64,000 bases of DNA, from the IMG/VR virus record IMGVR_UViG_3300010371_000036, positions 1 to 64,000 of that record; one strand, given 5' to 3'. This DNA is from a virus. Of the stretch, positions 2,744-50,015 are shown piece by piece. A model generated the notes under the pieces. The model was not told the DNA's origin and made no database searches. It saw only the letters and a list, made by a program, of their open reading frames with translations. A program made the translations under genes and the position numbers. Each line of letters starts with the position of its first letter. Position 1 is the first letter of the stretch.

Positions 2744-5124
2744 CAGACCCTCCGGCGCGGGTAAAGCGCGACCGCCTTGACGAGAACGCCCGAGAACTCA
2801 CTCTCCAACTCGCTCGCGGACGGAACCCGGGTTCCGTCCTTCCGGAGGTTCTCCCAGATCGCCCGATCGAGCGCCCGCGCCTTCTCCGTAAACGTGAAGC
2901 CGCGGGCCCACTCCATCGTCTTCGTCGCCTCCGGGACCGTCGTCCGGAACCGCCCCGTCCACTCGAGCGAAGCGACGACGTTGTCGACGAACTCCTCCGG
3001 CATCGTCGGGCGGAGCCGCGGCAGACGGAGGTCCCGCCTGTAGACGTCACCGAGCGCGTCCCGCTCGTAGTAGACGACCGAGACGCCGATCGCGAGGCAC
3101 TCCATCATCGAGACCGAGAACGTCTCGCACGGCATCGGCGGGTCGAGCGGGAACGGGAAGACGCTCGCCTCGGAGAGCTCCCGGAGGACCTCCGCCCGCG
3201 AGAGGTTCCCGAGGAACCGGACGGCGCTCATCTCGGGTCGGATCGGGGCGATCGTCTTCAGAACCCGATCGGTGCGGAGTCCCTGCCGGCACGCCTTCCC
3301 CGCGTAGTGGGTGAGCCAGCCGGCGACGTCGCCGACGACGTGGAGCGTCGCCTCGGGGAACCGGCGGACGATCTCCGGCCACGCCTCGAGGAGCTCGTGA
3401 AGCCCCCGACTCGCGCTCGTGTGGTAGACGCAGCGGCCGCGGACCGGGCGGTAGTCCGGGAGGTCCGGCTGGATCGCGTTCGGCATCACGTACCAGGGCG
3501 CCTCCCCGTCGTAGACCGTCCGGAGCGCGTCGGCCGCGTACCGGCTCGGCGCGAGGTTCACGTCGGTCCACTCGAACGCGCCCGGGTGCGGGACCTGGAA
3601 CGTGTGGTGCGAGGCGACCCGGAGGCAGCCGGAGACGCCGACGAGCGGACTCGTATCGTAGTACGCGACAAGGACGTCGCGATCGCCGTCCTTGTCGAAC
3701 TCGGAGAGCGGACGGTAATCGGCCCCTCCGACGTCCGTCTTCCCCGTCCACTTGAACGTCGAGTACGCCCGGACCTCGTAGCCGAACTTCGGGAGCTCCC
3801 GCACCAGGCCCATGAAGCCCGCCCGGCAGCCGCCGCCAGAGTTCGAGTCGAAGGGCCTGTTGACGTCGATCGGCTCCGGGCCGGACGCGTACGGCGTCAG
3901 CACGAGGTCGATCCGCGCCTTCGCCTTCACCTCGGCGCGGACGCTCGGCGCCGGCGCCCGCTTCGCCGCGACCCCCTCGACGAGGTAGCCCTCGAGCCTC
4001 TTCGCGAGCACGCGCCAGTCGTGCCTCCGCGCGTGCTCCGCCCCGATGTCCGCCACCTTAAGCCGGAGCTCCTGACTCTGGAGAGCCCCGACGACGAGCG
4101 TCCGGAAACTATCCATCCGCTCCCCGACCGGGTGCCGGACGACCGCCGCCGCGTTCCCGTGGACCTCCTCGAGGCAGTCCGCCGAGGAGATGACCGGGAA
4201 GGCGCCGGCGGCGCACGCCTCGAGCGTCGCGACCGAGAACGTCTCGGTGAACGCGAGCGGCGCGCACGGGTAGGCGAAGACCTCCGCCTCGCAGAGCTCC
4301 TTGACGAGCTGTCGGTGCGAGACCCCGCCGACGCGCGTGACGCCGTGCCCCTCGAGCCGCCGGAGCGCGTGCCGGATGTAGAGCGCCCGGCGCGTGCACT
4401 CGTGGTCGACCGGACCCCCGAACCGCTTCGAGGGGTCGCAGTGGTAGGCGAGCCACGTCTCGAGGCTCTGGTAGTAGATCCGAAGCTCCGCGTTCGGGAC
4501 CGCCGCCCGGATCTCCGGCCAGACCTGGAGGAGGAGGTGAAGGCCCCGGTCCGGCGAGGACGTGTACGCGACCCGCCCGGGGACCTTCTGCTTCAGTGCG
4601 CCGCGGAACTGCTCCGGGTAGCACCCGTTCGGCAGCACCCGGAACTTCGCCCGGGCCGCCTCCGGGAGCGGCCCCGCGACGTGCGCCTTCGCCGTCTCGC
4701 TCGGGACGAGGTAGAGGTCGACGAACGCGTCGAAGCCCGCCGTCTCGTACTCGAAGGAGTCGATCCCGAAGGAGGCGACCTGGCGGTTGACGACCCGGAG
4801 CGCGCCCGCCGGCGCCTCCCGAAGCGCGTTCGGGTTCGACGTCGCGATGACGGCGTCCCACGCTACGCCCTTGCTCCCGATGTCCCAGGCGGAGAAGTCG
4901 AGGACCTGAACCCCGTCGTACGACGCACCCTCCTCGCCGACCGCGTGGCAGTAGAGCGTCACCTCGTGGCCGAGCGCCGCGAGCTCCTTCGCGTAGTAGA
5001 GGCAGACGAGGTCCGTCCCGGTCAGCCCCGCCTTCCCGCCCTCGAGGTCATCGAAGTCGAGCGGCGCCCGGTGCTGCCCGAAGGCGACGGGCGCGTAGAG
5101 AAAAGCGATCTTGAGCTTGTTCAC
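2740..5124 (-). CDS. tandem double GT4 (GT-B) glycosyltransferase
   Basis: GTG 5124 start; two repeats of YTSSPDRGL/YHTSASRGL...ETFSVATLEA/ETFSVSMMEC. Confidence 0.85.
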   Translation of the reverse strand: MNKLKIAFLYAPVAFGQHRAPLDFDDLEGGKAGLTGTDLVCLYYAKELAALGHEVTLYCHAVGEEGASYDGVQVLDFSAWDIGSKGVAWDAVIATSNPNALREAPAGALRVVNRQVASFGIDSFEYETAGFDAFVDLYLVPSETAKAHVAGPLPEAARAKFRVLPNGCYPEQFRGALKQKVPGRVAYTSSPDRGLHLLLQVWPEIRAAVPNAELRIYYQSLETWLAYHCDPSKRFGGPVDHECTRRALYIRHALRRLEGHGVTRVGGVSHRQLVKELCEAEVFAYPCAPLAFTETFSVATLEACAAGAFPVISSADCLEEVHGNAAAVVRHPVGERMDSFRTLVVGALQSQELRLKVADIGAEHARRHDWRVLAKRLEGYLVEGVAAKRAPAPSVRAEVKAKARIDLVLTPYASGPEPIDVNRPFDSNSGGGCRAGFMGLVRELPKFGYEVRAYSTFKWTGKTDVGGADYRPLSEFDKDGDRDVLVAYYDTSPLVGVSGCLRVASHHTFQVPHPGAFEWTDVNLAPSRYAADALRTVYDGEAPWYVMPNAIQPDLPDYRPVRGRCVYHTSASRGLHELLEAWPEIVRRFPEATLHVVGDVAGWLTHYAGKACRQGLRTDRVLKTIAPIRPEMSAVRFLGNLSRAEVLRELSEASVFPFPLDPPMPCETFSVSMMECLAIGVSVVYYERDALGDVYRRDLRLPRLRPTMPEEFVDNVVASLEWTGRFRTTVPEATKTMEWARGFTFTEKARALDRAIWENLRKDGTRVPSASELESEFSGVLVKAVALYPRRRVW
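2819..2838. repeat. 20-bp palindrome copy 2, inside the glycosyltransferase C-terminus (DGTRVPS)
   Basis: GACGGAACCCGGGTTCCGTC. Confidence 0.97.
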
Positions 5125-7778
5125 GTTCCGACCTCCCGGTGCTCCCGGTACTCCGGGAGGCGTCCCATACCCGCGTCGATCATCAGGTCCTCGAAGAGCG
5201 CGTCCCACTGCTCGGCGACGCCGTCCCAGCGGAACGCGCGGAGCGCCTCCTCGCGCGTCTCCTCGCGCGTGTGGCCGCGGAACTGCCCCGGCACCGGGTC
5301 GTCGAAGTAGAGCGCCCCGACCGCCGCCTCGACGAACTTCTCCTGGTACTCCGCGGAGACCCAGTCCCCCTCGACGAGGCGGCCGTAGTCCCCGACCGTC
5401 TCCGGGAGCGCCCCGACCGGCGAGGTGACGATCCGGAGGCCCGCGGCGCGCGCCTCCATCGCGCTCATGCAACTCGTCTCCGGGTACCAAGTCGGGTAGA
5501 GCCACGCGCCGGCGGAGCACATCGCGGCGGCGAGCTTCTTCCGCGGGACGCGCCCGTGGTACCTCACGCCGAAGGAGCCCATACGGGCCATCGACCGCTG
5601 GATCACCTCGACGAGGAACCGGTGCTGCTGGTCCTTCGACTCCCCCGCCTGGAGCTTCCAGCCCTCGAAGGAGTAGTAGACGTCGAGCGTCGCCTCCGGG
5701 ACCCGCGAACGGATCGCCGGCCACATCTCGAGCAGCGCGCCGAGGCCGCGGTCCGGCGAGGAGCAGTAGATCGCCTTGTGCCGGTCGCGCGGAGGGTAAA
5801 CCGCGTTCGGCGAGTAGAGCGCCGGGTCGACGCCGTTGCGCGTGACGAAGACCTGGCTCTCCGGGATCCCGTGCTCGCGGACGAGGTTCCCCTTGTGCCA
5901 CTCCGAGAGCGCGAGGAACCGGTCGGCGAGGAGCGAGTACTCGTAGGTCATCCCGATCGCGGTCGTGTCGTGGCACCACATCAGGCGCGCCTTCGCCTCC
6001 CCCTGGGCGAGCAGGGGGGCGAGGCGCCAGGCGACGAGGACGTCGACCTTCGGCCGGAGGTCCGGCGTCCAGGTGACGTAGTCGACGTCGCCGGCGAACG
6101 TCCCCTCCTCCCCGGGCGCGCCGTAGACGGTCACGCGGTGACCCATCTTCCCGAGACGGCGCGCGAGCTCGACGACCGCCGTCTCGCTCCCGCCGTGCCC
6201 GTACCGCTCGACGAGGTCGGGGTTCCAGGGCTCGCGGGCGGGCCCGCACATGAACGCCACCGAGAACGCCTTCGAGGGGAATCGGAACTGACCGCTCAGC
6301 GTCGCGACGCCGATAGGCGTCGGGGCACCTTTCCACAACGGACGGAACCCGGGTTCCGTCTTCGGCGGTTCCATCGGGAGACCGGCGATCGCCCGGACCT
6401 GCATCTCCCGCCGCGCATCCGGCGTCAGGGCCGAGGCCATCTTCCCCAGGTACGCGTCGTCGTGGTGGGGCGCCGGGACGGGCGCGCTAAGGATCCCCTC
6501 ACCCGCCCGGAACGTCGTCGCCTTCCCGGACGGAACCGATCGGGAGACGCGGACGCTCACCTTCGCCTCGCCCGCCATGAACTTCGGGTCCGCCCCGGCC
6601 CCCGGGAGCACCCTCGACGCCTTCGCCGGCGCACAGAGCTTCGCCGTCGTGTAGCGCTTCAGGGCGAAGCGGAGCTGGGGGTGGTCCGGCACCGCCTCGA
6701 GCGCCCGCTCGGTCGCGCGGATGGCCGTGTCCCACTCCCCCTCGACCTCGGCGGCGGTCCGGATCAGGTCGTGGATGAAGAACGCGCGGTCCGCCGGATT
6801 GCGCCCGATCGGCGTCCGGGTCTCCGGCGCCGCGAGCGCGTTGAAGCCGTGCGCGATCACGTCGAACATCGCATCCGGCTCGCCGAGGAGGGTCCCGCGG
6901 AGCATCGCGAACCGCGCCCGCGCGTACTCGACCTCGAACGCCCCCGGCGCGTACCTCTCCGCCCGGTCGACCCAGTCGCGCGCCCGGTCGAGCCCCGCGC
7001 GCCCGACGTCCGCCGAGAACGCGCAGTCCGCGGCGCGCAGGCACGCGAGGGCCTGCTCCTCCGGCCAATTCGAGAACCCTACGTGCTCGGCGAAGTGCCC
7101 CTCCGCCTCCCGGTACCGGTGGGCGCGGTGGAGCTCGAAGCCGAGGTTGATGTGCGTCCAGGCGTCGAGGTGCCCGGCCGCGTACCACTTCTCGAGGATG
7201 GCGAGCGAGCGGCTCCGGGCCCCCGTCTCCGTCCGCTTGTGGACCCAGCGGACGTCCTTCATCCAGTAGTCGAGGCCCGGGTCGTAGCCGCCGGCTTGCT
7301 TCGTCAGCCCCTCGTGCGTCGGGTGCTCCCAGACCCAGGAGCCGTCGTTCGGGACGAGCCGCTCGCGCCACTGCTGCCGGGTGACCAGGCCCGTCGTCGG
7401 GTCGAACTCGTAGTCGTACGGCGCGATGAGGCGCGCCGCCGCCGCGCGGCGGTCCCCGAGCTTCGCGTTCGCCTCGCGGATCTCCCGCGCGATGTGCTCC
7501 GCCCCGACGACGACGTCGTCCGTATCCATCCACATGATGTACGGCTGGGTCGCGAGCTCAAAAGAGATGTTCCGCGTGTACGCGAAGTCGTCCCTCCACG
7601 AAGAGACCGTCCACGTATCCGCGACCTTCACCGTCCGCGCCTTCGCCTCGGACGGCGCATCGTCGTCGACGACGATGCAGACCTGCTCGACGTACGGGCG
7701 GACCGAGGCGACCGCCTGCTCGAGCAGCGGATCGTCTCGGAAGATCATGCAGAGGGAAACCGGGGCCTTCGTCGTCAT
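5121..7778 (-). CDS. GT2 + TPR-like + GT4 fusion glycosyltransferase
   Basis: N-terminal VSLCMIFRD...WRDDFAYTRN...WMDTDD...HE (SunS-like GT2), helical repeats, then GGSETA...SSPDRGL...YPETSCMSAMEA (GT4). Confidence 0.85.
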   Translation of the reverse strand: MTTKAPVSLCMIFRDDPLLEQAVASVRPYVEQVCIVVDDDAPSEAKARTVKVADTWTVSSWRDDFAYTRNISFELATQPYIMWMDTDDVVVGAEHIAREIREANAKLGDRRAAAARLIAPYDYEFDPTTGLVTRQQWRERLVPNDGSWVWEHPTHEGLTKQAGGYDPGLDYWMKDVRWVHKRTETGARSRSLAILEKWYAAGHLDAWTHINLGFELHRAHRYREAEGHFAEHVGFSNWPEEQALACLRAADCAFSADVGRAGLDRARDWVDRAERYAPGAFEVEYARARFAMLRGTLLGEPDAMFDVIAHGFNALAAPETRTPIGRNPADRAFFIHDLIRTAAEVEGEWDTAIRATERALEAVPDHPQLRFALKRYTTAKLCAPAKASRVLPGAGADPKFMAGEAKVSVRVSRSVPSGKATTFRAGEGILSAPVPAPHHDDAYLGKMASALTPDARREMQVRAIAGLPMEPPKTEPGFRPLWKGAPTPIGVATLSGQFRFPSKAFSVAFMCGPAREPWNPDLVERYGHGGSETAVVELARRLGKMGHRVTVYGAPGEEGTFAGDVDYVTWTPDLRPKVDVLVAWRLAPLLAQGEAKARLMWCHDTTAIGMTYEYSLLADRFLALSEWHKGNLVREHGIPESQVFVTRNGVDPALYSPNAVYPPRDRHKAIYCSSPDRGLGALLEMWPAIRSRVPEATLDVYYSFEGWKLQAGESKDQQHRFLVEVIQRSMARMGSFGVRYHGRVPRKKLAAAMCSAGAWLYPTWYPETSCMSAMEARAAGLRIVTSPVGALPETVGDYGRLVEGDWVSAEYQEKFVEAAVGALYFDDPVPGQFRGHTREETREEALRAFRWDGVAEQWDALFEDLMIDAGMGRLPEYREHREVGT
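6341..6360. repeat. 20-bp palindrome copy 3, in the GT2/GT4 linker (TEPGFR)
   Basis: GACGGAACCCGGGTTCCGTC. Confidence 0.97.
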
Positions 7779-8041
7779 CGATCCTCGCTCTCTTTTCGAA
7801 TCGCGTACCACGTCGCGAGCCACTCGGGGGCGACGTAGCCGCTCCGAGCGAAGTAATTGAAGAACTCGAGCGCCGCCTTCGCGGGGTCCTCCGGGATCGC
7901 CTCCTCCGCGAGGCGCCACGCCTCGCTCTGGATCTCTTGGATCTCCTCCCGGGTGAGGAGCGCCTCGCTCGCCTTCCGGTGCGTGAGCTGAGCGCTCAGG
8001 CAGGCGAGGAAGTAGTCGCGCCGGGTCAAAGCATCCTCCAC
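7775..8041 (-). CDS. hypothetical phage protein (RDYF motif)
   Basis: LTRRDYFLA pattern, common in small phage proteins; coupled to both neighbours. Confidence 0.6.
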   Translation of the reverse strand: MEDALTRRDYFLACLSAQLTHRKASEALLTREEIQEIQSEAWRLAEEAIPEDPAKAALEFFNYFARSGYVAPEWLATWYAIRKESEDR

Positions 8042-8763
8042 GTTTCACCCAGACGGATCCGCCTGATCGTATTCTTATGGAGCCCGTACGCTCTTGCGAT
8101 CGCGGCGTTCGTCTCGCCATCGTCGATCCGGCGTCGGATGTCGAAGACTTTATCGACGGTCAGCTTTGCCTGGCCGCTCCTCTCCCCCCTCGCAAGTCTC
8201 TCGGGACGGAGTCTCGCAGGGTGAACGTCTCCTCTTAGGAGCCGTTCTGGCTTAGTCCGACTCCCGTTACGATCTCCCCTCGCTAGGCGCTCAGGCTTCG
8301 TTCTTGACCCGTGCCTGTCGCCTCTCGCATTCCGCCCCTTCCGGATCATATCCGCGACATTCTCCCGAGGAGTCCCGATGAACAGGTGGTCTCTACGAAC
8401 GCACCTCCTGTTGTCGCATCGGTGAAGGACCCAATGTCCCACCGGAACCGAGCCCCCGACCGCTACCCACGCGAACACGTGGGCCCCGATTCCCCGACCT
8501 CCTAGCCAGAAATTACCGTACCCGCTCCGCGTCCCTCCGGTCCAAACCCAGCAAGGTCCGAGCTCCGGGCAGTGTGCAGGCGTAGGCCCGTTCTTATCGA
8601 CCCTCATCCAGAACCGACTCGCGGGCGAGACCGAGGCCCTCTTCTCGAGAGAGACCTTTACGCCGGCCGCGATGACCGCGGCTCGCTTCTCCGGCGACAT
8701 CTCACGGAAGCCCACGGAGATCCTCCGCCGTCGTCCAGTCGTTAGCGAGGCGGTTCTGGGCAT
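8026..8763 (-). CDS. HNH homing endonuclease with 15-aa repeats and C-terminal HTH (start may be ATG 8700)
   Basis: RFWMRVDK, CWVWTG, GYG, AHV, VLHRCDNRRCVRRDHLFIGTPRENVADMIRKGR; visibly lower GC. Confidence 0.9.
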   Translation of the reverse strand: MPRTASLTTGRRRRISVGFREMSPEKRAAVIAAGVKVSLEKRASVSPASRFWMRVDKNGPTPAHCPELGPCWVWTGGTRSGYGNFWLGGRGIGAHVFAWVAVGGSVPVGHWVLHRCDNRRCVRRDHLFIGTPRENVADMIRKGRNARGDRHGSRTKPERLARGDRNGSRTKPERLLRGDVHPARLRPERLARGERSGQAKLTVDKVFDIRRRIDDGETNAAIARAYGLHKNTIRRIRLGETWRML

Positions 8764-10575: not shown

Positions 10576-11154
10576 TCAGCGGGCGCGGCGGGGCGGGGGC
10601 GGGAGCTCGTCGCCGTAGTGCGTCCACGCCGGGTCCGGCGTCCCGTCCGGGAGGAGCCGCCGGCGCCGCGCGTGCATCTCCGCGTAGGGGCCGAAGCAGA
10701 GGTCCTCGACGAGGTCATAGAACGCGTCCGGCTTCCCGGAGTGCTCGCCCACCGGCGCGTCGAACGTGTCGAACGTGCTCCGGACCGAGAGCGACCGGAG
10801 GACCGGGCGGCCGCGCCGGAAGACGAGGCAGGTCTCGTGCTCGTTCCGCGCCGTCCGCCCCATCCCGAAGTGCCGGTTCCCGTTCTTCGTCCGCTTCACC
10901 CAGACGAGCTCCGCGCCCGTGTACTCGAAGCCCCAGGCCCGGCCGACCGCGAACGCCTCCTCCGCCATCGCGCCGACGCGCCAGAGGAAGAGGTGGCAGT
11001 CCTCGTGGAGGCGCGGGAGCTTCTCGGCGCAGATCGCCTCGATGCTCGCCGCCGTGGTCTTGTAGATCTTCCGGACGCCCCGGCGCGGCCCCGGGAGCTG
11101 GTCCCGGAACGGCCAGGCCGGGTCGCAAACAAGCACGCGCGGTAGGTCCCTCAC
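10576..11154 (-). CDS. MT-A70 family adenine methyltransferase
   Basis: DPAW (cf. DPPW), HLFLW, WGFEY, WVK, FGMG...RNEHE, HSGKP, EMHAR, GDE. Confidence 0.85.
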   Translation of the reverse strand: MRDLPRVLVCDPAWPFRDQLPGPRRGVRKIYKTTAASIEAICAEKLPRLHEDCHLFLWRVGAMAEEAFAVGRAWGFEYTGAELVWVKRTKNGNRHFGMGRTARNEHETCLVFRRGRPVLRSLSVRSTFDTFDAPVGEHSGKPDAFYDLVEDLCFGPYAEMHARRRRLLPDGTPDPAWTHYGDELPPPPRRAR

Positions 11155-12071
11155 TTCGCACCTCTCAGCTTCCAGGTCGAGTGCTCGCGCCACCCGTCGT
11201 GCTCGAGGACGCCGGCGCGCCGGAGCTCGAGGAGGCGCCCGTCGAGCCGCGAGCGGGGGATCCCGAGCGCCGCGCGGATCGCCGCGCTCCCGGAGGAGCC
11301 GGCGCCGCGGAGGTACTCGACGATCCGCGCCTTCTCCGCCTCGATCCCCGCCCGGCGCCCGGCCCGGGTGTAGGACGGAACCCGGGTTCCGTCCGCGGGG
11401 CGGACCCTCGGCATCCGCGCCGTCTCCCGCGCGTCGACGAGCGCCTGAGCCTCCCGGAGCGGGACGCCCTCGAGGTAGAGCCCCGCGACCTCCTCGGCCC
11501 AGGCGTCGGCCTCCGCGTCGAACTCCTCGCCGAGGAAGTCGCTCGCCCGCCCCTCGCTCTTCCGCGAGTCCTCCCCGCCGCCGTTCTCCCCCTCCGCCTC
11601 CGCGAAGGAGGGGGCCTCGTTCATCCGCTCGCGGAGGTAGTCGACGAACGCCTCCCGCTCGCCGGGCGTCAGCTTCCGGAGGAGCCGCTCGAGGGCGCGG
11701 ACCTCGAGCTGTCGGACCCGCTCGCGGCTCATGTTCATCAGGCCGGCGATCTCCTCGAGCGCCGCGCCGCCCCGGTCCGCGACGTCGAGCGCGCACGACT
11801 CGGGCATGTCCTCGACCTCGCGCGACGGGAAGTTCCAGACGATCGTGTCGCCGCGCACCCCCGCGACGTCGAGGTAGAGGTGGTAGCGACACGAGACCAT
11901 GGGGCACGGCCGGCTCGTCCCCCGACAGTCCTCGCGGCCGGCGGGGAGCGCGTGGTCCGTCCCGTCCCGGAGGACGGGGAGACGCCGGCGACTCCGCCAG
12001 ACCCCGGAGTCGTCCCCCCGGACCCTCTCGCGCCGCGGGGCGCCCGCGCGGGTCCTCCTCGCGGCGCTCAC
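11151..12071 (-). CDS. Cys-rich sigma-70 region-4-like HTH DNA-binding protein with a C-terminal winged HTH
   Basis: DCRGTSRPCPMVSCRYHLYLDV...CALDVADRGGAALEEIAGLMNMSRERVRQLEVRAL. Confidence 0.8.
   Translation of the reverse strand: MSAARRTRAGAPRRERVRGDDSGVWRSRRRLPVLRDGTDHALPAGREDCRGTSRPCPMVSCRYHLYLDVAGVRGDTIVWNFPSREVEDMPESCALDVADRGGAALEEIAGLMNMSRERVRQLEVRALERLLRKLTPGEREAFVDYLRERMNEAPSFAEAEGENGGGEDSRKSEGRASDFLGEEFDAEADAWAEEVAGLYLEGVPLREAQALVDARETARMPRVRPADGTRVPSYTRAGRRAGIEAEKARIVEYLRGAGSSGSAAIRAALGIPRSRLDGRLLELRRAGVLEHDGWREHSTWKLRGAK
11374..11393. repeat. 20-bp palindrome copy 4, in a CDS linker (DGTRVPS)
   Basis: GACGGAACCCGGGTTCCGTC. Confidence 0.97.
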
Positions 12072-12418
12072 TCCGACCGGCTCACGGTCGGGACGCAGTA
12101 CCCCTCGCCCCCGAAGTCGTCCGCCCGGCCGCTCGGGAGGACGAGCTTCACGGCCGCGCCGCGCGGGTCGCTGTTGAACTTCACGGTTACGGGCTTGTCG
12201 CGCAGCGTGAAACGAACCCGTCGCTGGAGCCAGATGACCCGGGCCTGGTGCTCCCGCATGTCGACGATCGGCTCGTTGCACTCCCGGAGGTAGAGCGCGT
12301 AGAGCTCCGTCGAGAGGTCAATGAGCCGGCGCGCCAGAACGCCCACCTTCTCCGGGCTCTTCTCGATCTCCGCTAGGACGGCCCCGAACTCTGCCACCTC
12401 GCTCACCTTGATCGGCAT
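12068..12418 (-). CDS. hypothetical phage protein (FNSDPRG motif)
   Basis: Clean ORF with coupled overlap. Confidence 0.7.
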   Translation of the reverse strand: MPIKVSEVAEFGAVLAEIEKSPEKVGVLARRLIDLSTELYALYLRECNEPIVDMREHQARVIWLQRRVRFTLRDKPVTVKFNSDPRGAAVKLVLPSGRADDFGGEGYCVPTVSRSE

Positions 12419-12439: not shown

Positions 12440-13165
12440 CTAGTCACGAATGGCGACCCACCCGGCGAAGTTCATCCAGCGCCAGAAGCAGTCGACGGCG
12501 CGGAACCCCGCCTGCCGGAGGATGTCCTCGTTCCAGCGAGCGGTCACCGGGACGAGGACCCCCTCGAGCGCGCGCCGCTTGCGCTCGATCTCCTCGCTGC
12601 CGTACCCGTTCGCACCCTTCAGCTCGTGGTAGCGCCCGACCATGAGGGAGTCGACGTCCGCCGACTCCCCGAGCACCTTCTCGACGAGCACGAACACGCC
12701 ACCCGGCGCGAGGCGCTGGTAGACGTCCCTCACGATCCCCTGGCGATAGTTGATCGGCACGAACTGGAGCGTGAGCACCGAGAGCACCGCGGCGCACCCT
12801 GAAGACCACGCCCGGTCCGCCGGCTCGCGGAGATCCCAGTCGCGGACGAGGACGTTCTGGCGACCCTCGAAGCGACGCCGGAGAACGTCGAGCATCGGTG
12901 GCGATCGCTCGATCGCCCAGAACTGCCGCACCGCCGACGACCTCTCGACGAGGGCCGCGATCGCGTCCCCGCGCGAGCTCCCGAGGTCGACGACGTCGCC
13001 GGGCAGCACGTCGAGGAACCCCATCGTGATGTCCTCGACGGACCGGCGCATGACGCCGTACTGCGGGATCGACCGCTCGAGCATATCCGGGAAGACGTCG
13101 ACGACCCCGGCGTCGAACTCCCACTTCTCACCGGACGGGACGTGCTTGACGCTTGATTCACTCAT
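12440..13165 (-). CDS. cmoA: carboxy-S-adenosylmethionine synthase (CmoA-like)
   Basis: WEFDAGVVDVFPDMLERSIPQY, DLGSSRG, LTLQF, PGGVFVLVEK, KGANGYGSEEIERKRRALEGVL, AGF...FWRWMNF match CmoA along the whole length. Confidence 0.88.
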   Translation of the reverse strand: MSESSVKHVPSGEKWEFDAGVVDVFPDMLERSIPQYGVMRRSVEDITMGFLDVLPGDVVDLGSSRGDAIAALVERSSAVRQFWAIERSPPMLDVLRRRFEGRQNVLVRDWDLREPADRAWSSGCAAVLSVLTLQFVPINYRQGIVRDVYQRLAPGGVFVLVEKVLGESADVDSLMVGRYHELKGANGYGSEEIERKRRALEGVLVPVTARWNEDILRQAGFRAVDCFWRWMNFAGWVAIRD

Positions 13166-14562
13166 GGCTTCCAACCTCCGAACCTGTCCTGGTGAGCACG
13201 CGCGTAGAGGGCGCGGGGATCGGCGATCTGCGACTCGATCGCGCGCTTGAGGCCCATCCCGTCCTGGAACGCGACCTTCGGTCGGCGCAAGACGCTCTCC
13301 GGCAGGAGCCCGCGCATCGCGTCCCGGAGGACCGCCTTCGTCACGCTCCCGCGCTGCACGAGCGGGCGCTCAAACGAGAGCACCCGCTCGACGAGCGCCG
13401 GGTTCAAGAACGGCAGGCGGCACTCGACCGAGCTCCGCATGAAGACCTTGTTCGCCCGCGGGAAGTTCTTGCGCGACTGACCGAGGAAGGACTCCTTCCG
13501 GAAGCCGTGCCAGCCGCGCGTCTGGATCCCGTGGTAGGCGAACCCGTACGACCCGAAGAGCTCGTCGGCACCCTCCCCGGAGAACGTCACCTTGAAGCCG
13601 TCCGCGCTCATGCGCTCCGCGAGCTTCATGCACGCCCAGGCGATCTCCACCTGCGACTTGAACGGCATCTCGATCGCGTCGACGACGCGCGCGAGGTCCT
13701 CCGCGCTCGGGCACTCGACCGGGACCTCGACCAGCCGGACGCCGAGCATCTCCGCCGTCTCGCGCGCGCCCCGCAGGTCCCGGGACTTCGCGTCGAAGAC
13801 TGCCGTATACGCGACGAGATCCGGCACGTGCGGCCGGAGCAGCGCGGCGATCGCCCCGGAGTCGACCCCGCCCGAGAGCAGCGCGCACACCGGGACGTCG
13901 GCGATCCTCCGCTCCTCGACGCTCGCGCGGAGGAGCCCCAGGAGCTCCTCCGCGGCCTCCTCCGGCTCCGCCGCCTTCGGCAGCGCGGGGACGTCGACCC
14001 AGCGCCTCGAGCGCACGCGACGACCGTCCGACTCGACGATCTCCCCCGGCCCGACGTCCACGATCCGCGTCGGGTCCGCGCCGAGGGCGAGGAGGGCCCG
14101 CGCCTCGCTCGCGAAGTAGAGCGGCGCCTGCGCCGCGTAGTGGAGCGGGACCTCGCCGAAGCGGTCGCGCGCCAGCCGGACCCACTCCCCGTCGCCGCTC
14201 GTCCAGGCGATCGCGAACATCCCGTTGAACTTCGGGAGCGCAGCGTCACCCCAGCGCGCGAGGGCGGCCGCGACGACCTCCGTGTCCCCCGGAGTCCGGA
14301 ACTCCTCACCGAGCGCCGTGAGCTCAGCGCGGAGCTCCCGGTAATTCCAGAGCTCCCCGTTGTACGCGAGCGTGAGCTGCCCCCGCTTGAACGGCTGCGC
14401 GGAGCGATCGTCGAGGTCGATGATCGCGAGACGGGCGTGACCGAGCACCACCGCGCCGTCGGTGACGACCGCCTGCGCGTCCGGGCCTCGGTGCCGGATC
14501 GTCTGGAGGGCGCGCTCCACGGCGGACGCGGCGCCGCCGACGGTCCCGACGATCCCGCACAT
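13162..14562 (-). CDS. asnB: asparagine synthetase B-like glutamine amidotransferase / ATP-dependent amide ligase
   Basis: MCGIVG, HRGPD, GHARLAIID, YNGELWN, NGMFA, RDRFG, LSGGVDS, SGEGADELFGSY, RLPFL. Confidence 0.93.
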   Translation of the reverse strand: MCGIVGTVGGAASAVERALQTIRHRGPDAQAVVTDGAVVLGHARLAIIDLDDRSAQPFKRGQLTLAYNGELWNYRELRAELTALGEEFRTPGDTEVVAAALARWGDAALPKFNGMFAIAWTSGDGEWVRLARDRFGEVPLHYAAQAPLYFASEARALLALGADPTRIVDVGPGEIVESDGRRVRSRRWVDVPALPKAAEPEEAAEELLGLLRASVEERRIADVPVCALLSGGVDSGAIAALLRPHVPDLVAYTAVFDAKSRDLRGARETAEMLGVRLVEVPVECPSAEDLARVVDAIEMPFKSQVEIAWACMKLAERMSADGFKVTFSGEGADELFGSYGFAYHGIQTRGWHGFRKESFLGQSRKNFPRANKVFMRSSVECRLPFLNPALVERVLSFERPLVQRGSVTKAVLRDAMRGLLPESVLRRPKVAFQDGMGLKRAIESQIADPRALYARAHQDRFGGWKP

Positions 14563-15923
14563 CAGCGCGGGACCTTGAAGATCTTGTCTCGGATCGCCGC
14601 CGCGACCGCGCGCATCATCACCGGTGGGACCGCACGGCCGCACCGCTCCCACTGCTGCGCGTACGTCCCCGCCAGGATGAAGTCGTCCGGGAAGGAGCAG
14701 ATCCGCCGGAGCTCGGCGATCGTGAACTTCCGGATCTCCGTCGGGTGCTCGGCCGACGCCTCTTCCTCGACCTTGTAGTGGCACGAGTTGAGGGAATCGA
14801 CGCCGACCGTGATCGCCGGGCACGGACGGTCCGTGATCGTCACGTCTTGCGCGAATGCCCCAGACGTATCGTGCGCGTCGCGCACGATACGCGCCTCCAC
14901 CGTCGAGGGCGGACTCCGACCGTTCCCCGAACTCGGCCCCGCACCGATCGTCTGCGACGGGTTCGTGCTCGAATGCCAGGCGCTCGTCCCGTACGGCGAG
15001 TTCGCCATCTGCCGGGTCACGTGCGGCAGCGCGTCGCGGATCGAGTACCTGTACGGGAGCGGCTCCGGGTGCACCGGGTCGAGCCCGAGGTCCGTGCGCA
15101 CGCCGACGAAGATGACGCGCTGCCGGCACTGCGGCACCCCGAGCCACTGCGCGTCGAGCAGGCGCGCCTTGACGCGGTACCCGCACGCCTCGAGCGCCGC
15201 GTGAATCTCCTTGAAGTACCCCTTCGCGACCCCGCGCACGAGACCCGCGACGTTCTCCGCGACGAAGACCTTCGGCTGGAGACCCTTCAGGATCCGCGCG
15301 TACTCGAAGAAGAGGTCGTCGGTCCGCTGCTGCGTGTCCGAGTACGTCTTCTCCTTGCCCCAGTGCTTCTCCCGCTTGCCGGCCGTCGAGAAGCTCGCGC
15401 ACGGCGGGGAACCGTCGAGCACGTCGAGCTCTCCCACCTCGAGACCCGTCGCCGCGAGGATGTCCTCCGCCGTCACCGTGCGAATGTCACGCCCGTCGAG
15501 GATGGTCGACGGGAAGTTCGCGGCGTACGTCTCGCGCGCCATCTCGACGAACTCGCTCGCCCAGACGACCTTCATCCCGGCCATCGCGTAGCCGAGGCTC
15601 GAGCCGCCCCCTCCAGAGAAGAGGCTAACGACCTTGAGACCCGTCGGCGGGAGCGCTCGGATCTCCTCCATCGACGGGACTCGATACGGCGGCTTCTCCC
15701 GCGGCACGACACCCGGCGACGAGGCCACCGTAGAGGTCTCGGACAGCGCCGGCTTCGACGCGCTCGACGATGACGCGCTCTCGCTCAGGGTCGTAGACCG
15801 CGACCCCGAGCGCCGCTTTGCGGTGCGCGATGGCGATCGACTTCCGGAGCCGGATGCGGAGGAGGGAGACGATCGCCGCGTCGATCGCGTCGAGGTCACG
15901 GCGGGCTTCTTCGACTTGGGCAT
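14562..15923 (-). CDS. C5-cytosine DNA methyltransferase homolog, predicted carboxymethyltransferase (start ATG 15923 or GTG 15707)
   Basis: Motif I FSGGGG, IV GSPPCASFS, VI ENVAGL, VIII PQCRQR; motif X reads GRAVPP instead of GNAVPP. Confidence 0.92.
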   Translation of the reverse strand: MPKSKKPAVTSTRSTRRSSPSSASGSGSRSPSRTAKRRSGSRSTTLSESASSSSASKPALSETSTVASSPGVVPREKPPYRVPSMEEIRALPPTGLKVVSLFSGGGGSSLGYAMAGMKVVWASEFVEMARETYAANFPSTILDGRDIRTVTAEDILAATGLEVGELDVLDGSPPCASFSTAGKREKHWGKEKTYSDTQQRTDDLFFEYARILKGLQPKVFVAENVAGLVRGVAKGYFKEIHAALEACGYRVKARLLDAQWLGVPQCRQRVIFVGVRTDLGLDPVHPEPLPYRYSIRDALPHVTRQMANSPYGTSAWHSSTNPSQTIGAGPSSGNGRSPPSTVEARIVRDAHDTSGAFAQDVTITDRPCPAITVGVDSLNSCHYKVEEEASAEHPTEIRKFTIAELRRICSFPDDFILAGTYAQQWERCGRAVPPVMMRAVAAAIRDKIFKVPR

Positions 15924-15948
15924 CGAGGATCAGAACTGGAAGTGGCAT
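15625..15948 (-). CDS. chorismate mutase (AroQ/type II), overlapping its neighbours
   Basis: EEARRDLDAIDAAIVSLLRIR...IAHRK...VAVYDPERERVI matches the AroQ pattern R-x2-ID-x-ID-x2-I-x2-LL-x2-R...K...DPxRE. Confidence 0.8.
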   Translation of the reverse strand: MPLPVLILDAQVEEARRDLDAIDAAIVSLLRIRLRKSIAIAHRKAALGVAVYDPERERVIVERVEAGAVRDLYGGLVAGCRAAGEAAVSSPVDGGDPSAPADGSQGR

Positions 15949-16460
15949 CGGGGGCACTCCCGCGCGAGGTGCATCCCGCCCGGCTCGAGGTTCTTGAACT
16001 CCGGCGGGGCGCTCGGGGGCTCGATGCGCGCCAGGAGCAAGTCGAGGTCCTTGTCCTCGTAGTTCGTCGCGAGGAGGTCCCCGTCGTCGCGGAGCGCCTT
16101 GAGCAGCGACGCGAGCTGCACGTCGTCGTAACTCGCGAGGTCGCTCGTCCGGTTGTCGAGCGCCAAGATCTTCCGGGCCTGGCGCTCGGTGAGCGAGTGG
16201 AGCTCGACGGGGATCTTCTTCATCCCGAGCTCCTTCGCCGCCTTCCAGCGGTGGGAGCCGACGAGGATCTGATTCGTCTCCTGCCAGACGAACACCCGCC
16301 CGTAGAACCCGACCTCCTCGATGCTCCGCTTGATCGCCGGGACGTTCCCGCGCCGGGCGTTCTCCGGGTGGGGGGCGATTGCGTCGATCGCGACGACCTT
16401 CTTCACCCCCTCGAGGATCTGCGGGATAGGCGCCTTCGTCTTCTTCTCAGCTCTCGCCAT
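15930..16460 (-). CDS. ParB/Srx-like N-terminal domain protein with a C-terminal CPxC
   Basis: PHPENARRG, IKRSIEEVGF, ILVGSHRWKAAKELG, LALDNRTSDLA. Confidence 0.85.
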   Translation of the reverse strand: MARAEKKTKAPIPQILEGVKKVVAIDAIAPHPENARRGNVPAIKRSIEEVGFYGRVFVWQETNQILVGSHRWKAAKELGMKKIPVELHSLTERQARKILALDNRTSDLASYDDVQLASLLKALRDDGDLLATNYEDKDLDLLLARIEPPSAPPEFKNLEPGGMHLARECPRCHFQF

Positions 16461-32740: not shown

Positions 32741-35700
32741 TCAGCGAAGCCCGAACGCCTTCGCGGCGCGCACCGGGTCGAACACCGCCACCTCCGCCCC
32801 GCCGGCGAGGAGGCGGTCCTCCTCCGTGATGACGGAACCCGGGTTCCGTCCGGCCGCGAACGCGTCGAGTTCGACCGCATCGGCGACCCGCGTCGCTTCC
32901 GCGATCGCGTCGATCGCCGCATAGTCCCCCCACCCGGCCGCGGAGAGCGCAGCCTGGATCTCGTCCTCGGCGTCCGCCTGCTCCCGGTCCGCCTCCGCCT
33001 GGAGGACCCCCGGGAAGACGCTGAGGAAGGGGCTCCGCTCGACCGGGCGGACGCCCGTGCGCGTCGCCATCTCGTTCACGTAGGAGACGACGAGGTGGTC
33101 GCGGGCGCGGGTCGCCGCGACGTACATCAGGCGGCGCTCCTCCTCGAGGTCCCCCTTCGCGTGCGGGAGGATCGTGTCGTTGCAGCCGACGACCCAGACG
33201 ACCGGCCACTCGAGGCCCTTCGACTTGTGGACCGACATCATCGTGACGCACCTATCGCCGCGCTTGCGCTTGTTCAGCTCCGCCTCCCGGACCTGGACCT
33301 CGACGAAGTCGAGGAACTCCGGGACGGACTCGAAGGAGCCGGCGACGCGCTGGAGCTCCCGGACGTTCGCGCCGTGGCTCCCCTCGATCGACTCCTCGCC
33401 CTCCTCCTTCTCGAGCCACGCGACGTAGTTCGTCCGCCGGACGAGCCGGTCGAGGACCTCCGCCGCCGTCGCCTTCCGCGTCCGCTTCGGGAAGACGCAC
33501 TCGTGCTCGACGCAGCCGCAGCAACCGGACTCGCAGCCGCAGACCGAGCAGGCGGGCGGGGGCTGGTCCGGCAGGGTCTCGCCGACCGGTAGCCCGTTCT
33601 CGACGAGGTCGGAGACCATCTCGAGGAGCTCGACCCACTCCCGGACGCTCTCCCTCTGCCGCTGCTGGATCCCCGCCTGCTGCGCGGCGATCTTCGTCAC
33701 GTCGGTCCAGGGGAGCGCCGCGCCGTACTGCTCGCGGACGGCCATCACCTTCTCGACGAACCGCGCGCCGAGGAACCGGAACGGCGCGTTGATGCAGCGC
33801 TTGACCGCGTCGCCGTCCTTGTCGCGCCCCGTCGCGAGCCGGAGGTACGCGAGGAGGTCCTTCACCTCCTTGCGCTCGTAGAAGTTCACGCCGCCGATGA
33901 GCACGTAGGGGATCTTCGCGCGGAGGAGCGCCTCCTCGAGGGCGCGGCTCTGGGCGTTCAGCCGGAAGAGGGCCGTCACGTCGGCGAGGGACGCCCCCTC
34001 CGCCTGCCGGCGCCGGCAGAACTCGACGAGCTCCTCGGCCTCGTCGTCGAGCGTGTCCGCATTGACGACTTCGACCCGGCCCTCGACCCCGCGCTCGGCG
34101 CTCATGTCCTCCGGGAGCCGGTGCTTGCCCTGCCGGATGACGTCGTTCGCCACGCGAACGATCGCGTCGCCGGAGCGGTAGTTCCGCTTCATCGTCACGA
34201 TCTTCGCGCCCGGCCACGCCGTCGCGAAGTCGGTGAGGTACTTCGGGTCGCTCCCCCGGAAGGCGAAGATCGACTGCCCCGGGTCGCCGACGATCATGTA
34301 GTTCCGGTGGTCGCGGGCGAGGAAGGACGCGATCATGATCTGGATCGGGTTCGCGTCCTGCGCCTCGTCCTGGAGCACGTAGTCGAACTTCGCCGCCCAG
34401 CTCGCGCGCACGTCCTCGCGCTCGGAGAAGAGGCGGACGACGTACATCAGCATGTTGTCGAACGTGAGGAGCTGCGCCCCCTCGATGAGCTCCTCCGACT
34501 TCGCGTAGACGTTCACGGCCTTCTGGGCCGCCGGGCCGAACTTCCTCCGCGCGAGCTCGAGGGCCCGCGGGTCCGAGGGCCAGAAGTAGTTCGCCTTACA
34601 GACCGTGATGAAGGACCGGACCTTCGTCGCGTCCATGCCCTTCCAGTTCTCGTACTCGTAACCGCCGGCGCGCTTGACGAGGGTCTCTGCCTGCTTCTTC
34701 TCGTCGACCTTCCAGCGACCGTACGGCGTCCCCTCCTCGCGGAGGACGCGGGAACAGAACGCGTGCCACGTCTTCACCTCGGCGCCGCCGACGCCGAGCT
34801 GGCGGATCCGCGCGTCCATCTCGGCGGCGCCCGGGCGGGAGAAGGTCACGCAGAAGATCCGGTCGGCGGAGACGCCGACGTGCTCGATCAGGCGGACGAC
34901 CCGGTGGACCAGGGCGCGCGTCTTCCCACTGTTGTGCGTCACCGTGAAGTCGCCGAGGAGGTAGCGCTGATCGCCGTCGAGCTGAAAGCCGTAGTAGTCC
35001 TCGACGCCGAGAGTCTCGAGCGAGAACCCGGTCCGGAGGACGTTCTTCACCTGCCGGCGCGGGCCCGCCTTCTTCCGCGGGATCCGGCAGGGGATCTGCT
35101 CGACCTCGCCGGAGATGCTCACGCGCCAGTACGTCCCGCCCTGACCGTTCTGGTCCCACTTCTCGCACGGCGAGACGTACGCCGCGAGACCGAGACTCCG
35201 GGCGACGAAGGCGACGCCATGCGCGAGGTCCGGCGACTTCGAGATGAAGTCGTAGCACCCACCCGAGAGGCTCCCGTCCGTATCGAGGATCCCGGCGAGG
35301 AGTCGGATCCGCGCCGCCGAGCACGCCGTCAGGTACGCCTCCGGAATGAAGCGCGTCCCGCTCGTCGTCCCGAAGAGACCGAGGCGGCGGAGCGCCATCA
35401 CGAGCGCGTTATGGTGTCGAGCCTTCCCCTTGTTCGACCCGGCCGAGAGGCAGTAGGTCGCGCTCGTCCCCTCGCCGTCCTTCCGGACGGCCAGACCGAA
35501 GACCCCCGCCTGGCGGTAGACCTCGTCGACGATCTCCTGGTCCGGCTTCGAGACGCCGACCGAGCACTGCATCGTCCCGTCGCCGAGGAGGACGCCGAGG
35601 AAGTACGGGTCGATCGGGAGCTCCCAGCCGGAGCCGCGATCGAACTCGACGCGACTCGCGCGGAGGAGCTTCCACTCCTTCCGCTTCGGGAGTGACCCGA

Positions 35701-36097
35701 CGTCGCGGACCTCGACGTCGCGAACCTCACCGCTCACCGAGTGGACGACCGTCAGGAGGTGCCCCGCGTTCACGACGAACGGAGCGCCCTTCACCGGGAC
35801 GACCCGGACCATCCGCTCGCGACCCCGCGCGAGGGCGAGGACCCGGCGCGGCTTGCTGTCCGGCCCGAGGAGGAGATCCCCGACGCGAACGTCCTCGACG
35901 GCGCGGCGGGTCCCATCCAGCATCAGGACGAGCTGTCCCGCGCGATGGCAGCCCGCACCGGCGTAGACGCCGATCGGCCCGCCCTCGTGGCGGATCACCT
36001 CGAGCTGCTCGGCGTTCATGTTCCGCTCCCAGACCGGGAGCTCGTCGCCGGGGGCGGGGAGGAGGACCTGCGCCGAGGCGCGCTCGCGACGGGCCAT
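32741..36097 (-). CDS. uvrD: UvrD/PcrA-like SF1 helicase containing an intein
   Basis: MNAEQ, AGAG|SGKT, VTFS, TWHAF, QDEAQD, VGDPGQSIFAFRG, NYRS, SVHKSKGLEW, EERRLMYVAATRA. Confidence 0.95.
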   Translation of the reverse strand: MARRERASAQVLLPAPGDELPVWERNMNAEQLEVIRHEGGPIGVYAGAGCHRAGQLVLMLDGTRRAVEDVRVGDLLLGPDSKPRRVLALARGRERMVRVVPVKGAPFVVNAGHLLTVVHSVSGEVRDVEVRDVGSLPKRKEWKLLRASRVEFDRGSGWELPIDPYFLGVLLGDGTMQCSVGVSKPDQEIVDEVYRQAGVFGLAVRKDGEGTSATYCLSAGSNKGKARHHNALVMALRRLGLFGTTSGTRFIPEAYLTACSAARIRLLAGILDTDGSLSGGCYDFISKSPDLAHGVAFVARSLGLAAYVSPCEKWDQNGQGGTYWRVSISGEVEQIPCRIPRKKAGPRRQVKNVLRTGFSLETLGVEDYYGFQLDGDQRYLLGDFTVTHNSGKTRALVHRVVRLIEHVGVSADRIFCVTFSRPGAAEMDARIRQLGVGGAEVKTWHAFCSRVLREEGTPYGRWKVDEKKQAETLVKRAGGYEYENWKGMDATKVRSFITVCKANYFWPSDPRALELARRKFGPAAQKAVNVYAKSEELIEGAQLLTFDNMLMYVVRLFSEREDVRASWAAKFDYVLQDEAQDANPIQIMIASFLARDHRNYMIVGDPGQSIFAFRGSDPKYLTDFATAWPGAKIVTMKRNYRSGDAIVRVANDVIRQGKHRLPEDMSAERGVEGRVEVVNADTLDDEAEELVEFCRRRQAEGASLADVTALFRLNAQSRALEEALLRAKIPYVLIGGVNFYERKEVKDLLAYLRLATGRDKDGDAVKRCINAPFRFLGARFVEKVMAVREQYGAALPWTDVTKIAAQQAGIQQRQRESVREWVELLEMVSDLVENGLPVGETLPDQPPPACSVCGCESGCCGCVEHECVFPKRTRKATAAEVLDRLVRRTNYVAWLEKEEGEESIEGSHGANVRELQRVAGSFESVPEFLDFVEVQVREAELNKRKRGDRCVTMMSVHKSKGLEWPVVWVVGCNDTILPHAKGDLEEERRLMYVAATRARDHLVVSYVNEMATRTGVRPVERSPFLSVFPGVLQAEADREQADAEDEIQAALSAAGWGDYAAIDAIAEATRVADAVELDAFAAGRNPGSVITEEDRLLAGGAEVAVFDPVRAAKAFGLR
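32831..32850. repeat. 20-bp palindrome copy 8, in the UvrD C-terminal tail (GRNPGSV)
   Basis: GACGGAACCCGGGTTCCGTC. Confidence 0.97.
34931..35950 (-). mobile_element. intein (340 aa) with LAGLIDADG homing endonuclease, in UvrD Walker A
   Basis: Starts CHRAGQ, ends VTHN before Ser; PYFLGVLLGDG and LLAGILDTDG motifs. Confidence 0.93.
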
Positions 36098-36372
36098 CAG
36101 ACGGCCACCCGGTTCACACGCTCGCCACGCTCGAGCGGGTTCGGCATCTCGACGACCTCGAACTCGTAAGCCACGACCGTTCCGCTCTCCTTCTCCGCCA
36201 GACCGTCCGCCCGCGTCCTGTCCGCGTTCGTCTCGATCGCGACCTTCACCGTGTACTCGACGAGCCCCGGGTATCCCGCGAGCAGACCCGCGTCGTCGCA
36301 CGAGAACATGAACGCCCAGGCCGCGTCCCGCGACCCGAACCGATACGTCGCCCGATCGACTCTCGTTCCCAT
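36097..36372 (-). CDS. hypothetical protein after cassette 2 (MGTRVDR...)
   Basis: GGAGGTTAGGGAG-ATG leader. Confidence 0.7.
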   Translation of the reverse strand: MGTRVDRATYRFGSRDAAWAFMFSCDDAGLLAGYPGLVEYTVKVAIETNADRTRADGLAEKESGTVVAYEFEVVEMPNPLERGERVNRVAV

Positions 36373-36448
36373 CTCCCTAACCTCCACCCGGACGCGCGGT
36401 CCGGACAAGACTCATCCTAGCCGTTTGGACAATGGTGTCCAAAGAAAA
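36373..36448 (-). promoter_or_regulatory. promoter/operator cassette 2 (operator 36424-36443; TTGGAC-17-TAGGAT)
   Basis: Repeat of cassette 1. Confidence 0.8.
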
Positions 36449-50006: not shown

Positions 50007-50015
50007 GGGGACCTC

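Follow-up and report, generated by a model that had tools for sequence, protein, structure and literature searches.

A predicted cytosine-hypermodification module with its own chorismate mutase gene in an uncultivated phage of high G+C content

Layout of the module

The IMG/VR record IMGVR_UViG_3300010371_000036 is a linear viral sequence of 72,288 bases with an estimated completeness of ~45%, and the stretch analysed here (hereafter the window) comprises its first 64,000 nucleotides. The window has a G+C content of ~70% and its minus strand carries nearly all genes. Between positions 12440 and 16460, five minus-strand genes are tightly packed; they encode, from 5' to 3', a protein with a ParB N-terminal domain, an AroQ-type chorismate mutase (CM), a homolog of the cytosine C5-carboxymethyltransferase CmoX, a putative AsnB-type amide ligase of the glutamine-hydrolysing class (CmoY, Gln/ammonia class) and a homolog of the carboxy-S-adenosylmethionine (carboxy-SAM, or Cx-SAM) synthase CmoA. 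A preliminary description of the window had proposed these five genes as a coupled set for the modification of cytosines in DNA. All five families were matched in profile searches, and the coupling is reflected in the arrangement of the genes, all of which overlap or abut.

The first gene (15930..16460) encodes the 176-aa ParB-like protein (PF02195, E 3e-06; phrog_723, E 1e-31), and its stop codon (15930-15932) falls within the CM gene. The latter (15625..15948, PF01817) most likely starts at ATG 15948, which is preceded 8 nt upstream by GGGAG and yields a protein of 107 aa, the alternative start being GTG 15957. The cmoX gene (14562..15707, PF00145) encodes 381 aa from GTG 15707, with GTG 15728 as an alternative, and its stop shares a single base (14562) with the ATG of the 466-aa ligase (13162..14562; GATase_6/7 and Asn_synthase domains). 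Finally, the ligase stop and the cmoA start (ATG 13165) form an ATGA overlap, and cmoA (12440..13165, TIGR00740) encodes 241 aa from this ATG, or slightly more from the alternative TTG 13174. Neither a sigma-70-like promoter nor a terminator-like site was detected within the module, by a scan which is weak at 70% GC.

The gene calls of the preliminary description hold, except for the transferase start that it placed at ATG 15923, as the first ~70 codons of this long open reading frame (ORF) are an out-of-frame image of the CM gene. In the frame of the long ORF, G+C contents at codon positions 1/2/3 are 0.52/0.76/0.82 over 15639-15923, which is atypical here: the transferase core shows 0.64/0.49/0.92, and the CM frame has a third-position G+C content of 0.87 in 15741-15920. 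In addition, CmoX homologs from other loci carry a conserved N-terminal motif, KPPYRVPSM, a few codons past their starts, and the nearest in-frame starts 5' of this motif in the window are GTG 15707 and GTG 15728. CmoX should thus start at one of these two codons, which implies that the CM and cmoX genes overlap by 83-104 nt.

It follows that 27-34 codons at the end of CM (15625-15728) overprint the first cmoX codons in another frame, and the tail read in the CM frame (…PVDGGDPSAPA…) corresponds to the conserved CmoX start (…RVPSMEEIRALP…) read in the other. An AlphaFold2 (AF2) model places the end of the third CM helix and the whole disordered tail in this overprinted stretch. Similar tails are found in at least 10 of the 20 proteins of a CM subfamily defined by the helix-3 motif Y..VV..CR (see below); being a reflection of the conserved N-terminal motif of CmoX, the tail motif reappears in relatives. 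We infer that the conserved tails of other family members mark an overlap with cmoX, and two related viral loci support this. DNA recovered for the subfamily member P0005 (locus L202) shows the predicted overlap with the cmoX start, and in a locus without CM (L006) the CmoX start, when read out of frame, encodes a similar-looking peptide with a weak match to the CM profile.

Two other explanations of the overlap were considered. A frameshift or sequencing error fusing CM to CmoX is unnecessary, since no alternative frame improves helix 3 and since the two genes also overlap in other viruses, either as a plain stop/start overlap (L189 and L192) or as a long overlap in separate frames (L202). 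Chance overprinting as the origin of the CM ORF was rejected in view of the conservation of the family.

Transferase, carboxy-SAM synthase and ligase homologs

The closest characterized counterpart of the module belongs to the Synechococcus phage S-B43 (PMC12783734, Yang et al., Nat Commun 2025). According to this paper, S-B43 CmoA makes carboxy-SAM from S-adenosylmethionine (SAM) and prephenate; CmoX, which is homologous to C5-methyltransferases, introduces 5-carboxymethylcytosine at GC sites, and CmoY, a homolog of asparagine synthetase, joins glycine to the carboxylate thus created. A census based on the SPPC motif and an Arg equivalent to R350 yielded 5,615 CmoX candidates, the same contigs carrying 4,257 CmoA, 2,251 ligase and 1,660 ParB-domain genes (PMC12783734). 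The second-largest ligase cluster of that census has a glutamine-hydrolysing domain and is predicted to use glutamine-derived ammonia, although no soluble protein was obtained (PMC12783734). The window module and the S-B43 system share the three enzyme families, a ParB-domain gene, the SPPC motif with the Cx-SAM-contacting Arg and the lack of CmoB, and S-B43 provides the closest solved relative of the window CmoX. They differ in that S-B43 has no CM, that the target-recognition regions of the two transferases do not align, and that the window ligase carries a glutamine-amidotransferase domain, so that its predicted amine is ammonia, whereas SpCmoY made a glycine amide.

The transferase ORF (14562-15923) matches PF00145 over profile positions 1-322 of 324 (E 1.2e-56), and its closest solved relative is SpCmoX (8YF3, E 5.2e-68), compared to 3.5e-24 for M.HaeIII. 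The SPPC motif is present (GSPPCASFS aligned to GSPPCSAFS of 8YF3), the ENV and QxRxR blocks align with those of 8YF3, and CGRAVPP aligns to VGRMVPP of 8YF3 and to IGNAVP of M.HaeIII, meaning that an Arg replaces the motif-X Asn. The counterpart of this Arg in SpCmoX is R350, a residue in contact with the carboxymethyl group of Cx-SAM. The window protein thus has both sequence features by which CmoX is recognized in PMC12783734, as do all five other homologs inspected. By contrast, no alignment with SpCmoX is obtained for the variable region (residues 281-392 of the 453-aa ORF), and the GC target specificity of SpCmoX cannot therefore be assumed here.

An ordinary 5-methylcytosine methyltransferase, accompanied by CmoA, AsnB and CM as metabolic or tRNA-modifying passengers, would match PF00145 and TIGR00675 just as well, since any Dcm-type enzyme does so and the window protein matches both, and a CmoB gene could lie in the missing part of the record. 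We nevertheless consider this possibility very improbable. The Arg at motif X and the 44 orders of magnitude in E-value by which SpCmoX outranks M.HaeIII point to a carboxymethyltransferase, and wild-type SpCmoX accepts only Cx-SAM (PMC12783734). Moreover, the overlapping genes recur as a set in phages of otherwise unrelated background. The preliminary description had seen no CmoB in the window, and this extends to the entire 72,288-base record, ~45% complete, in which neither CmoB (TIGR00452) nor a tRNA gene (ARAGORN) was found. In this respect the module differs from the CmoA/CmoB pathway of Gram-negatives, which leads to cmo5U in tRNA: the two have their cofactor logic in common (CmoA converting prephenate and SAM to Cx-SAM, with dependence on the shikimate pathway), but the acceptor enzyme would be a DNA C5-cytosine transferase instead of CmoB.

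The CmoA homolog matches TIGR00740 from position 14 to 238 of 239 (E 6e-40) as well as phrog_4752 (E 8.7e-67). Among solved structures, E. coli CmoA (4GEK/4IWN) and H. influenzae YecO match it best, with E-values from 2.7e-29 to 2.7e-26 and a margin of 11 orders of magnitude over the next class. Its identity to the experimentally validated CmoA of S-B43 amounts to only 27% (E 2e-16), and the activity of the latter at this level of identity indicates that the family of active enzymes spans at least such a divergence. More distant CmoA-like methyltransferases were encountered in 21 of the 30 viral loci with the closest CmoX homologs (phmmer E 1e-5 to 1e-9 against the window CmoA). Of these 21 proteins, six were compared to NCBIfam, where each of them had TIGR00740 as its best-matching family (E 1e-13 to 1e-18). 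The corresponding ORFs lie directly 3' of CmoX in L005, L015, L023, L025, L027 and L034, and another is located at 6373-7155 in L200.

The ligase begins with MCGIVG, in which Cys2 is the N-terminal nucleophile, and contains GATase_6 (E 1.6e-35), GATase_7 (E 5.7e-32) and Asn_synthase (PF00733, E 6.1e-48) domains. It scores above the cut-off of TIGR01536 (296.9 bits against 267.1; E 3.5e-88) and matches E. coli AsnB (1CT9) with an E-value of 5.3e-44. The RHRGPD, NGE, DxEV, SGGxDS and SGEGxDE blocks are conserved relative to 1CT9, and the PP-loop LLSGGVDS of the ligase aligns to LLSGGLDS.

Such an enzyme might also produce something other than a simple primary amide. It might use another nitrogen nucleophile, or a substrate other than 5-carboxymethylcytosine in DNA, in which case the final base would be a different one or 5-carboxymethylcytosine itself. 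The main text of PMC12783734 records no activity for a CmoY of the Gln type, and a hydroxyamidotransferase (7YLZ, E 1.1e-29) ranks second among the solved structures related to the glutaminase domain. In addition, CM, CmoX and CmoA occur without the ligase in L202 and in two other complete genomes, which makes the ligase an optional add-on. We regard a different product as unlikely all the same, because the protein has the complete set of Cys-nucleophile glutaminase and PP-loop synthetase blocks of asparagine synthetase B, for which ammonia transfer is the default chemistry, and because its gene overlaps those of CmoX and CmoA at both ends. The same gene position recurs in other phages, namely L006, L189 and the cultured Streptomyces phage TurkishDelight. 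Amidation of the carboxymethyl group with ammonia is thus the reaction we retain.

The chorismate mutase gene and its recurrence

The CM protein matches PF01817 above the gathering score (43.2 bits against a cut-off of 27; E 4.7e-11) and TIGR01808 over model positions 2-68 of 74. In the AF2 model, whose mean pLDDT is 86.9, residues 8-88 (numbered from ATG 15948) form a three-helix domain (helices 8-46, 54-62 and 68-88), and residues 89-107 form a tail of low confidence. When the model was compared to the PDB with Foldseek, the matches listed at ranks 1-46 were all AroQ chorismate mutases or PchB-type lyases, with target-normalised template modelling (TM) scores up to 0.84, all E-values exceeding 0.001 as CM is short. 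In a 16-member alignment, six positions do not vary (R16, D23, R33, K44, R56 and E57) and four hardly do (G48, D53, Y73 and R81). When aligned, the solved P. furiosus enzyme 1YBZ has the same residues at R16, R33, K44, D53, R56 and E57, and we take these six residues to be the equivalents of R11, R28, K39, D48, R51 and E52 of E. coli CM. These sequence comparisons and the model indicate that CM is a genuine, conserved gene with an AroQ fold. With other AroQ enzymes (the CM domain of the E. coli P-protein, 1YBZ, and those of M. tuberculosis and C. glutamicum), it has in common the three-helix fold, the Arg/Arg/Lys/Asp/Arg/Glu positions of helices 1-2 and a size of ~80-90 residues. It differs from them in being encoded by a phage, within a DNA-modification operon, in the Y..VV..CR motif of helix 3, in a subfamily that mostly lacks the Gln four residues past the Cys/Ser, and in the 83-104 nt overlap of its 3' end with the next gene.

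A search of 1.84 billion representative proteins returned 105 CM relatives at E <= 1e-3, the best being 64% identical over nearly the full length. Among the top 60 matches, 54 are short proteins, 20 of which carry the Y..VV..CR motif and 10 the [SC]RxxQ pattern. Searches starting from the CM sequence were much less productive in phage collections: tblastn with the window CM gave no match at E <= 1e-3 in 50,697 phage records, no relative was found in IMG/VR with the window CM alone or with a 5-sequence alignment (A2), and the search of cultured phages with P0010 returned only two Staphylococcus records, at 31% identity.

The preliminary description had suggested gene-neighbourhood analysis as a check, and the comparison of related loci reveals that the gene set recurs as a cassette in other phages, five of them with CM. 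A pattern scan of IMG/VR with the window CmoX yielded 30 loci (48-61% identity), and a scan with the window CmoA yielded 80 further records (45-59% identity). A ParB-like ORF lies directly 5' of the CmoX homolog in 29 of the 30 CmoX-related loci, and a strong Gln-type AsnB gene (E <= 1e-97) adjoins CmoX in seven of them. The 80 CmoA-related loci include 60 with CmoX, 23 with ParB and 17 with AsnB (E <= 1e-5). Flanking genes are hardly shared, as seven flanking proteins had no match in the 114 loci compared, and the SbcC-like and RuvC-like neighbours are common only to L202, the locus of a relative of the window's virus.

The same order, ParB-CmoX-AsnB-CmoA, is found in a cultured phage, namely Streptomyces phage TurkishDelight (gp122-gp125 of NC_073473; locus G+C 0.72), where these genes are merely annotated as ParB-like, methyltransferase, glutamine amidotransferase domain and methyltransferase. 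Its ligase (gp124) and CmoX are 50% and 54% identical to those of the window, and the ligase may belong to the Gln-type class of PMC12783734. Its CmoA-like protein is much more divergent (28% identity, E 1.4e-16), in the manner of those from the 21 loci mentioned above, and no CM_2 gene occurs anywhere in its 93.6-kb genome.

PF01817 was detected in four of the 110 related viral records (one of the 30 CmoX-related and three of the 80 CmoA-related ones), and in all four CM lies within the cluster, at most 2.9 kb from CmoA, a proximity whose probability by chance we calculate from the record lengths as ~5e-4. One of them (L189) has the gene order of the window, ParB-CM-CmoX-AsnB-CmoA. The others read ParB-CM-CmoX-CmoA (L192), ParB-CmoX-CmoA-CM (L145) and, in L034, ParB, a ligase without glutaminase domain, CmoX, a divergent CmoA and CM. 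A fifth case (L202), found from the CM side in a 94,582-base record rated 100% complete (locus G+C 0.69), reads ParB-CM-CmoX-CmoA. CM thus occupies two positions in the clusters, either between ParB and CmoX or past CmoA. As a background set, we examined 80 metagenome loci with generic CM relatives (28-53% identity, from a scan with alignment A3), none of which contains CmoA, CmoX or ParB.

Pairwise identities among the CM proteins of these clusters are 25-42% where BLASTP aligns them, with no alignment at all between the window and L145 proteins, compared to 44-58% for CmoX in the same set. This low identity fits either fast divergence or repeated recruitment of CM. No Asn_synthase gene was found anywhere in the L202, L192 and L145 records, all of which are rated 100% complete. 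The presence of CM in three complete genomes without Asn_synthase ties it to the CmoA/CmoX step and not to the ligase. The DNA of the L202 virus would then stop at 5-carboxymethylcytosine, unless an unrelated ligase acts on it.

A predicted route from chorismate to a modified cytosine

We lean towards interpreting the locus as a translationally coupled five-gene module for DNA hypermodification (parB-like/aroQ/cmoX/cmoY/cmoA) that would operate in four steps, and the route put forward in the preliminary description, from chorismate through prephenate, Cx-SAM and 5-carboxymethylcytosine to an amide, appears to be the best-supported reading. In the first step, the phage CM would turn host chorismate into prephenate. 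Secondly, CmoA would use one prephenate per SAM to make carboxy-SAM, as expected from its homology to the E. coli and S-B43 enzymes, for which this activity has been shown. Thirdly, CmoX would place the carboxymethyl group on C5 of cytosines within a short motif of the double-stranded phage DNA, as suggested by its two signatures and its close similarity to the crystallised SpCmoX. Finally, the ligase would adenylate the carboxylate and amidate it with ammonia released from glutamine by its N-terminal domain, yielding 5-carbamoylmethylcytosine. The likely benefit would be protection of the phage DNA from host nucleases. The carboxymethylation core of this scheme is considerably more secure than the CM-supply and amide steps.

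The rationale for a CM gene lies in the stoichiometry of CmoA, which takes a carboxyl group from prephenate, converting it to phenylpyruvate, and consumes one molecule per Cx-SAM (PMC10491745). Mutants of P. aeruginosa lacking aroB or aroC no longer form Cx-SAM-dependent cmo5U, and those lacking pheA form less of it (PMC11245014). As prephenate is used one-for-one and each progeny genome contains many cytosines, a pull of chorismate towards prephenate would benefit the phage, and a dedicated CM would free the supply of Cx-SAM from the small prephenate pool of the host. On the basis of its sequence and genomic context, CM thus probably feeds the pathway with prephenate.

Several points speak against this scheme or parts of it. 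The proposed chemistry is deduced from homology and synteny, and 5-carbamoylmethylcytosine is a predicted product. The window CmoA scores 137.4 bits, under the equivalog cut-off of TIGR00740 (193.3), a model trained on bacterial CmoA of the tRNA pathway; eight more viral CmoA-like proteins also score under this cut-off, at 49-155 bits. Given the ~45% completeness of the record, the failure to find CmoB is no proof of its absence. CM is a minority accessory, as 106 of the 110 related records, most of them fragments, lack PF01817, which is likewise not matched in the cultured phages S-B43, PaBG, Afa-NA1 and TurkishDelight; CM is therefore clearly not required.

The remaining objections concern the CM protein itself. 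The CM_2 match spans profile positions 2-60 of 80, i.e. helices 1-2 only. The [SC]RxxQ pattern of helix 3, which is widespread among ordinary CMs and whose Gln is catalytic in E. coli CM, is retained in just two of the 20 members of the Y..VV..CR subfamily; in the window protein, Cys80-Arg81 is conserved and the residue four positions on is a Gly. Judging from helix 3, the enzyme could be weak or altered.

The module could thus make 5-carboxymethylcytosine and its amide while the AroQ-like protein does something other than supplying prephenate, acting for instance as a PchB-like isochorismate-pyruvate lyase, as a chorismate sink or, as a weak remnant, in a regulatory or structural role. The lack of the helix-3 pattern in 18 of the 20 subfamily members and the restriction of the Pfam match to helices 1-2 are compatible with such roles, PchB lyases are among the fold matches (TM ~0.6), and most phages with CmoA and CmoX do without CM. 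Against this stand the six residues of active-site type in helices 1-2, which vary little or not at all across the family and are shared with a solved CM, as well as the association of CM with CmoA and CmoX instead of the ligase. Furthermore, CM genes in at least two arrangements and of low mutual identity have been recruited beside CmoA, and such recruitment is hard to explain unless prephenate, which CM makes and CmoA uses, matters. We therefore rate these alternative functions as improbable and retain prephenate supply as the probable role of CM.

The remaining genes of the window identify its virus as an uncultivated tailed phage of high G+C content. They encode a family-B DNA polymerase, a DnaB-like helicase, a UvrD helicase split by a Hint domain, a RecA-like protein, an SbcC-like ATPase, a large GT4 glycosyltransferase and a baseplate J protein. 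Next to the module lie genes for a 116-aa protein of no known family (12068-12418) and a sigma-70 region-4 protein (11151-12281), followed, ~0.5 kb beyond the module, by an ORF (10576-11907) with an MT-A70-family adenine methyltransferase domain (PF05063, E 1.3e-08; phrog_359, E 6.8e-40), and the phage may thus carry a second, independent DNA modification. Inteins interrupt at least two genes (32741-36376 and 44085-46532), one of them encoding the replication-type, UvrD-like helicase, with a Hom_end-associated Hint domain (E 2.1e-16), and the other a large ORF with intein-splicing and HNH domains. Glycosyltransferase domains of the GT4/GT1 type occur in a protein of 1,012 aa (5121-8159), and an FkbM-type methyltransferase is encoded at 1919-2797; no connection of these two genes to the cytosine module was found.

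Regarding the host, a protein with an Rv2525c-like glycoside-hydrolase-like domain (49368-50015, E 1.3e-15), which may be a lysis enzyme, hints weakly at an actinobacterium when considered together with the 70% G+C content and the resemblance of the ligase to that of a Streptomyces phage. A scan of genome contigs with CmoX yielded a single locus, in a Verrucomicrobia metagenome-assembled genome, with CmoX and a weak CmoA-like ORF; as CM, AsnB and ParB are all missing from it, this locus provides no host clue.

The core pathway, its association with ParB and the prediction of an ammonia-type ligase are already published. The preliminary description had suspected as much for the core, which corresponds to CmoA, CmoX and CmoY of PMC12783734, and had singled out CM as the unfamiliar part. 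The words "chorismate" and "mutase" do not occur in the main text of that paper, and our literature search found no paper combining chorismate mutase, CmoA and phage. Among the matches listed, no title or abstract connected a phage chorismate mutase with Cx-SAM or with the modification of DNA, the term "carbamoylmethylcytosine" was absent, and the match for Cx-SAM, phage and chorismate concerned tRNA modification in P. aeruginosa (PMC11245014). The embedding of CM in the operon, its recurrence and its overprint on cmoX thus appear to be new.

We are evenly divided on a two-part proposal that builds on these observations. In its first part, the phage CM would be a dedicated precursor supply for a DNA-modification cofactor, at the head of a route leading here from chorismate to 5-carbamoylmethylcytosine, a base not yet seen in nature. 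In its second part, these CM proteins would form a distinct short subfamily, whose tail, overprinted on the cmoX start, could be used as a fingerprint to find more such operons. The loci described here also have practical uses. For the question of what Gln-type ligases make, the window operon, five relatives and TurkishDelight offer alternative genes for expression, the published choice being insoluble, and co-expression of CM could raise Cx-SAM levels in production strains for enzymatic DNA labelling.

The availability of prephenate across hosts has been named as a matter needing investigation (PMC12783734). If the proposed role of CM is correct, a phage-borne CM would answer the question of where prephenate comes from when a large share of cytosines is modified. 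CM would then be an unusual auxiliary metabolic gene, by which the phage taps the shikimate pathway for nucleic-acid chemistry and not for amino acids.

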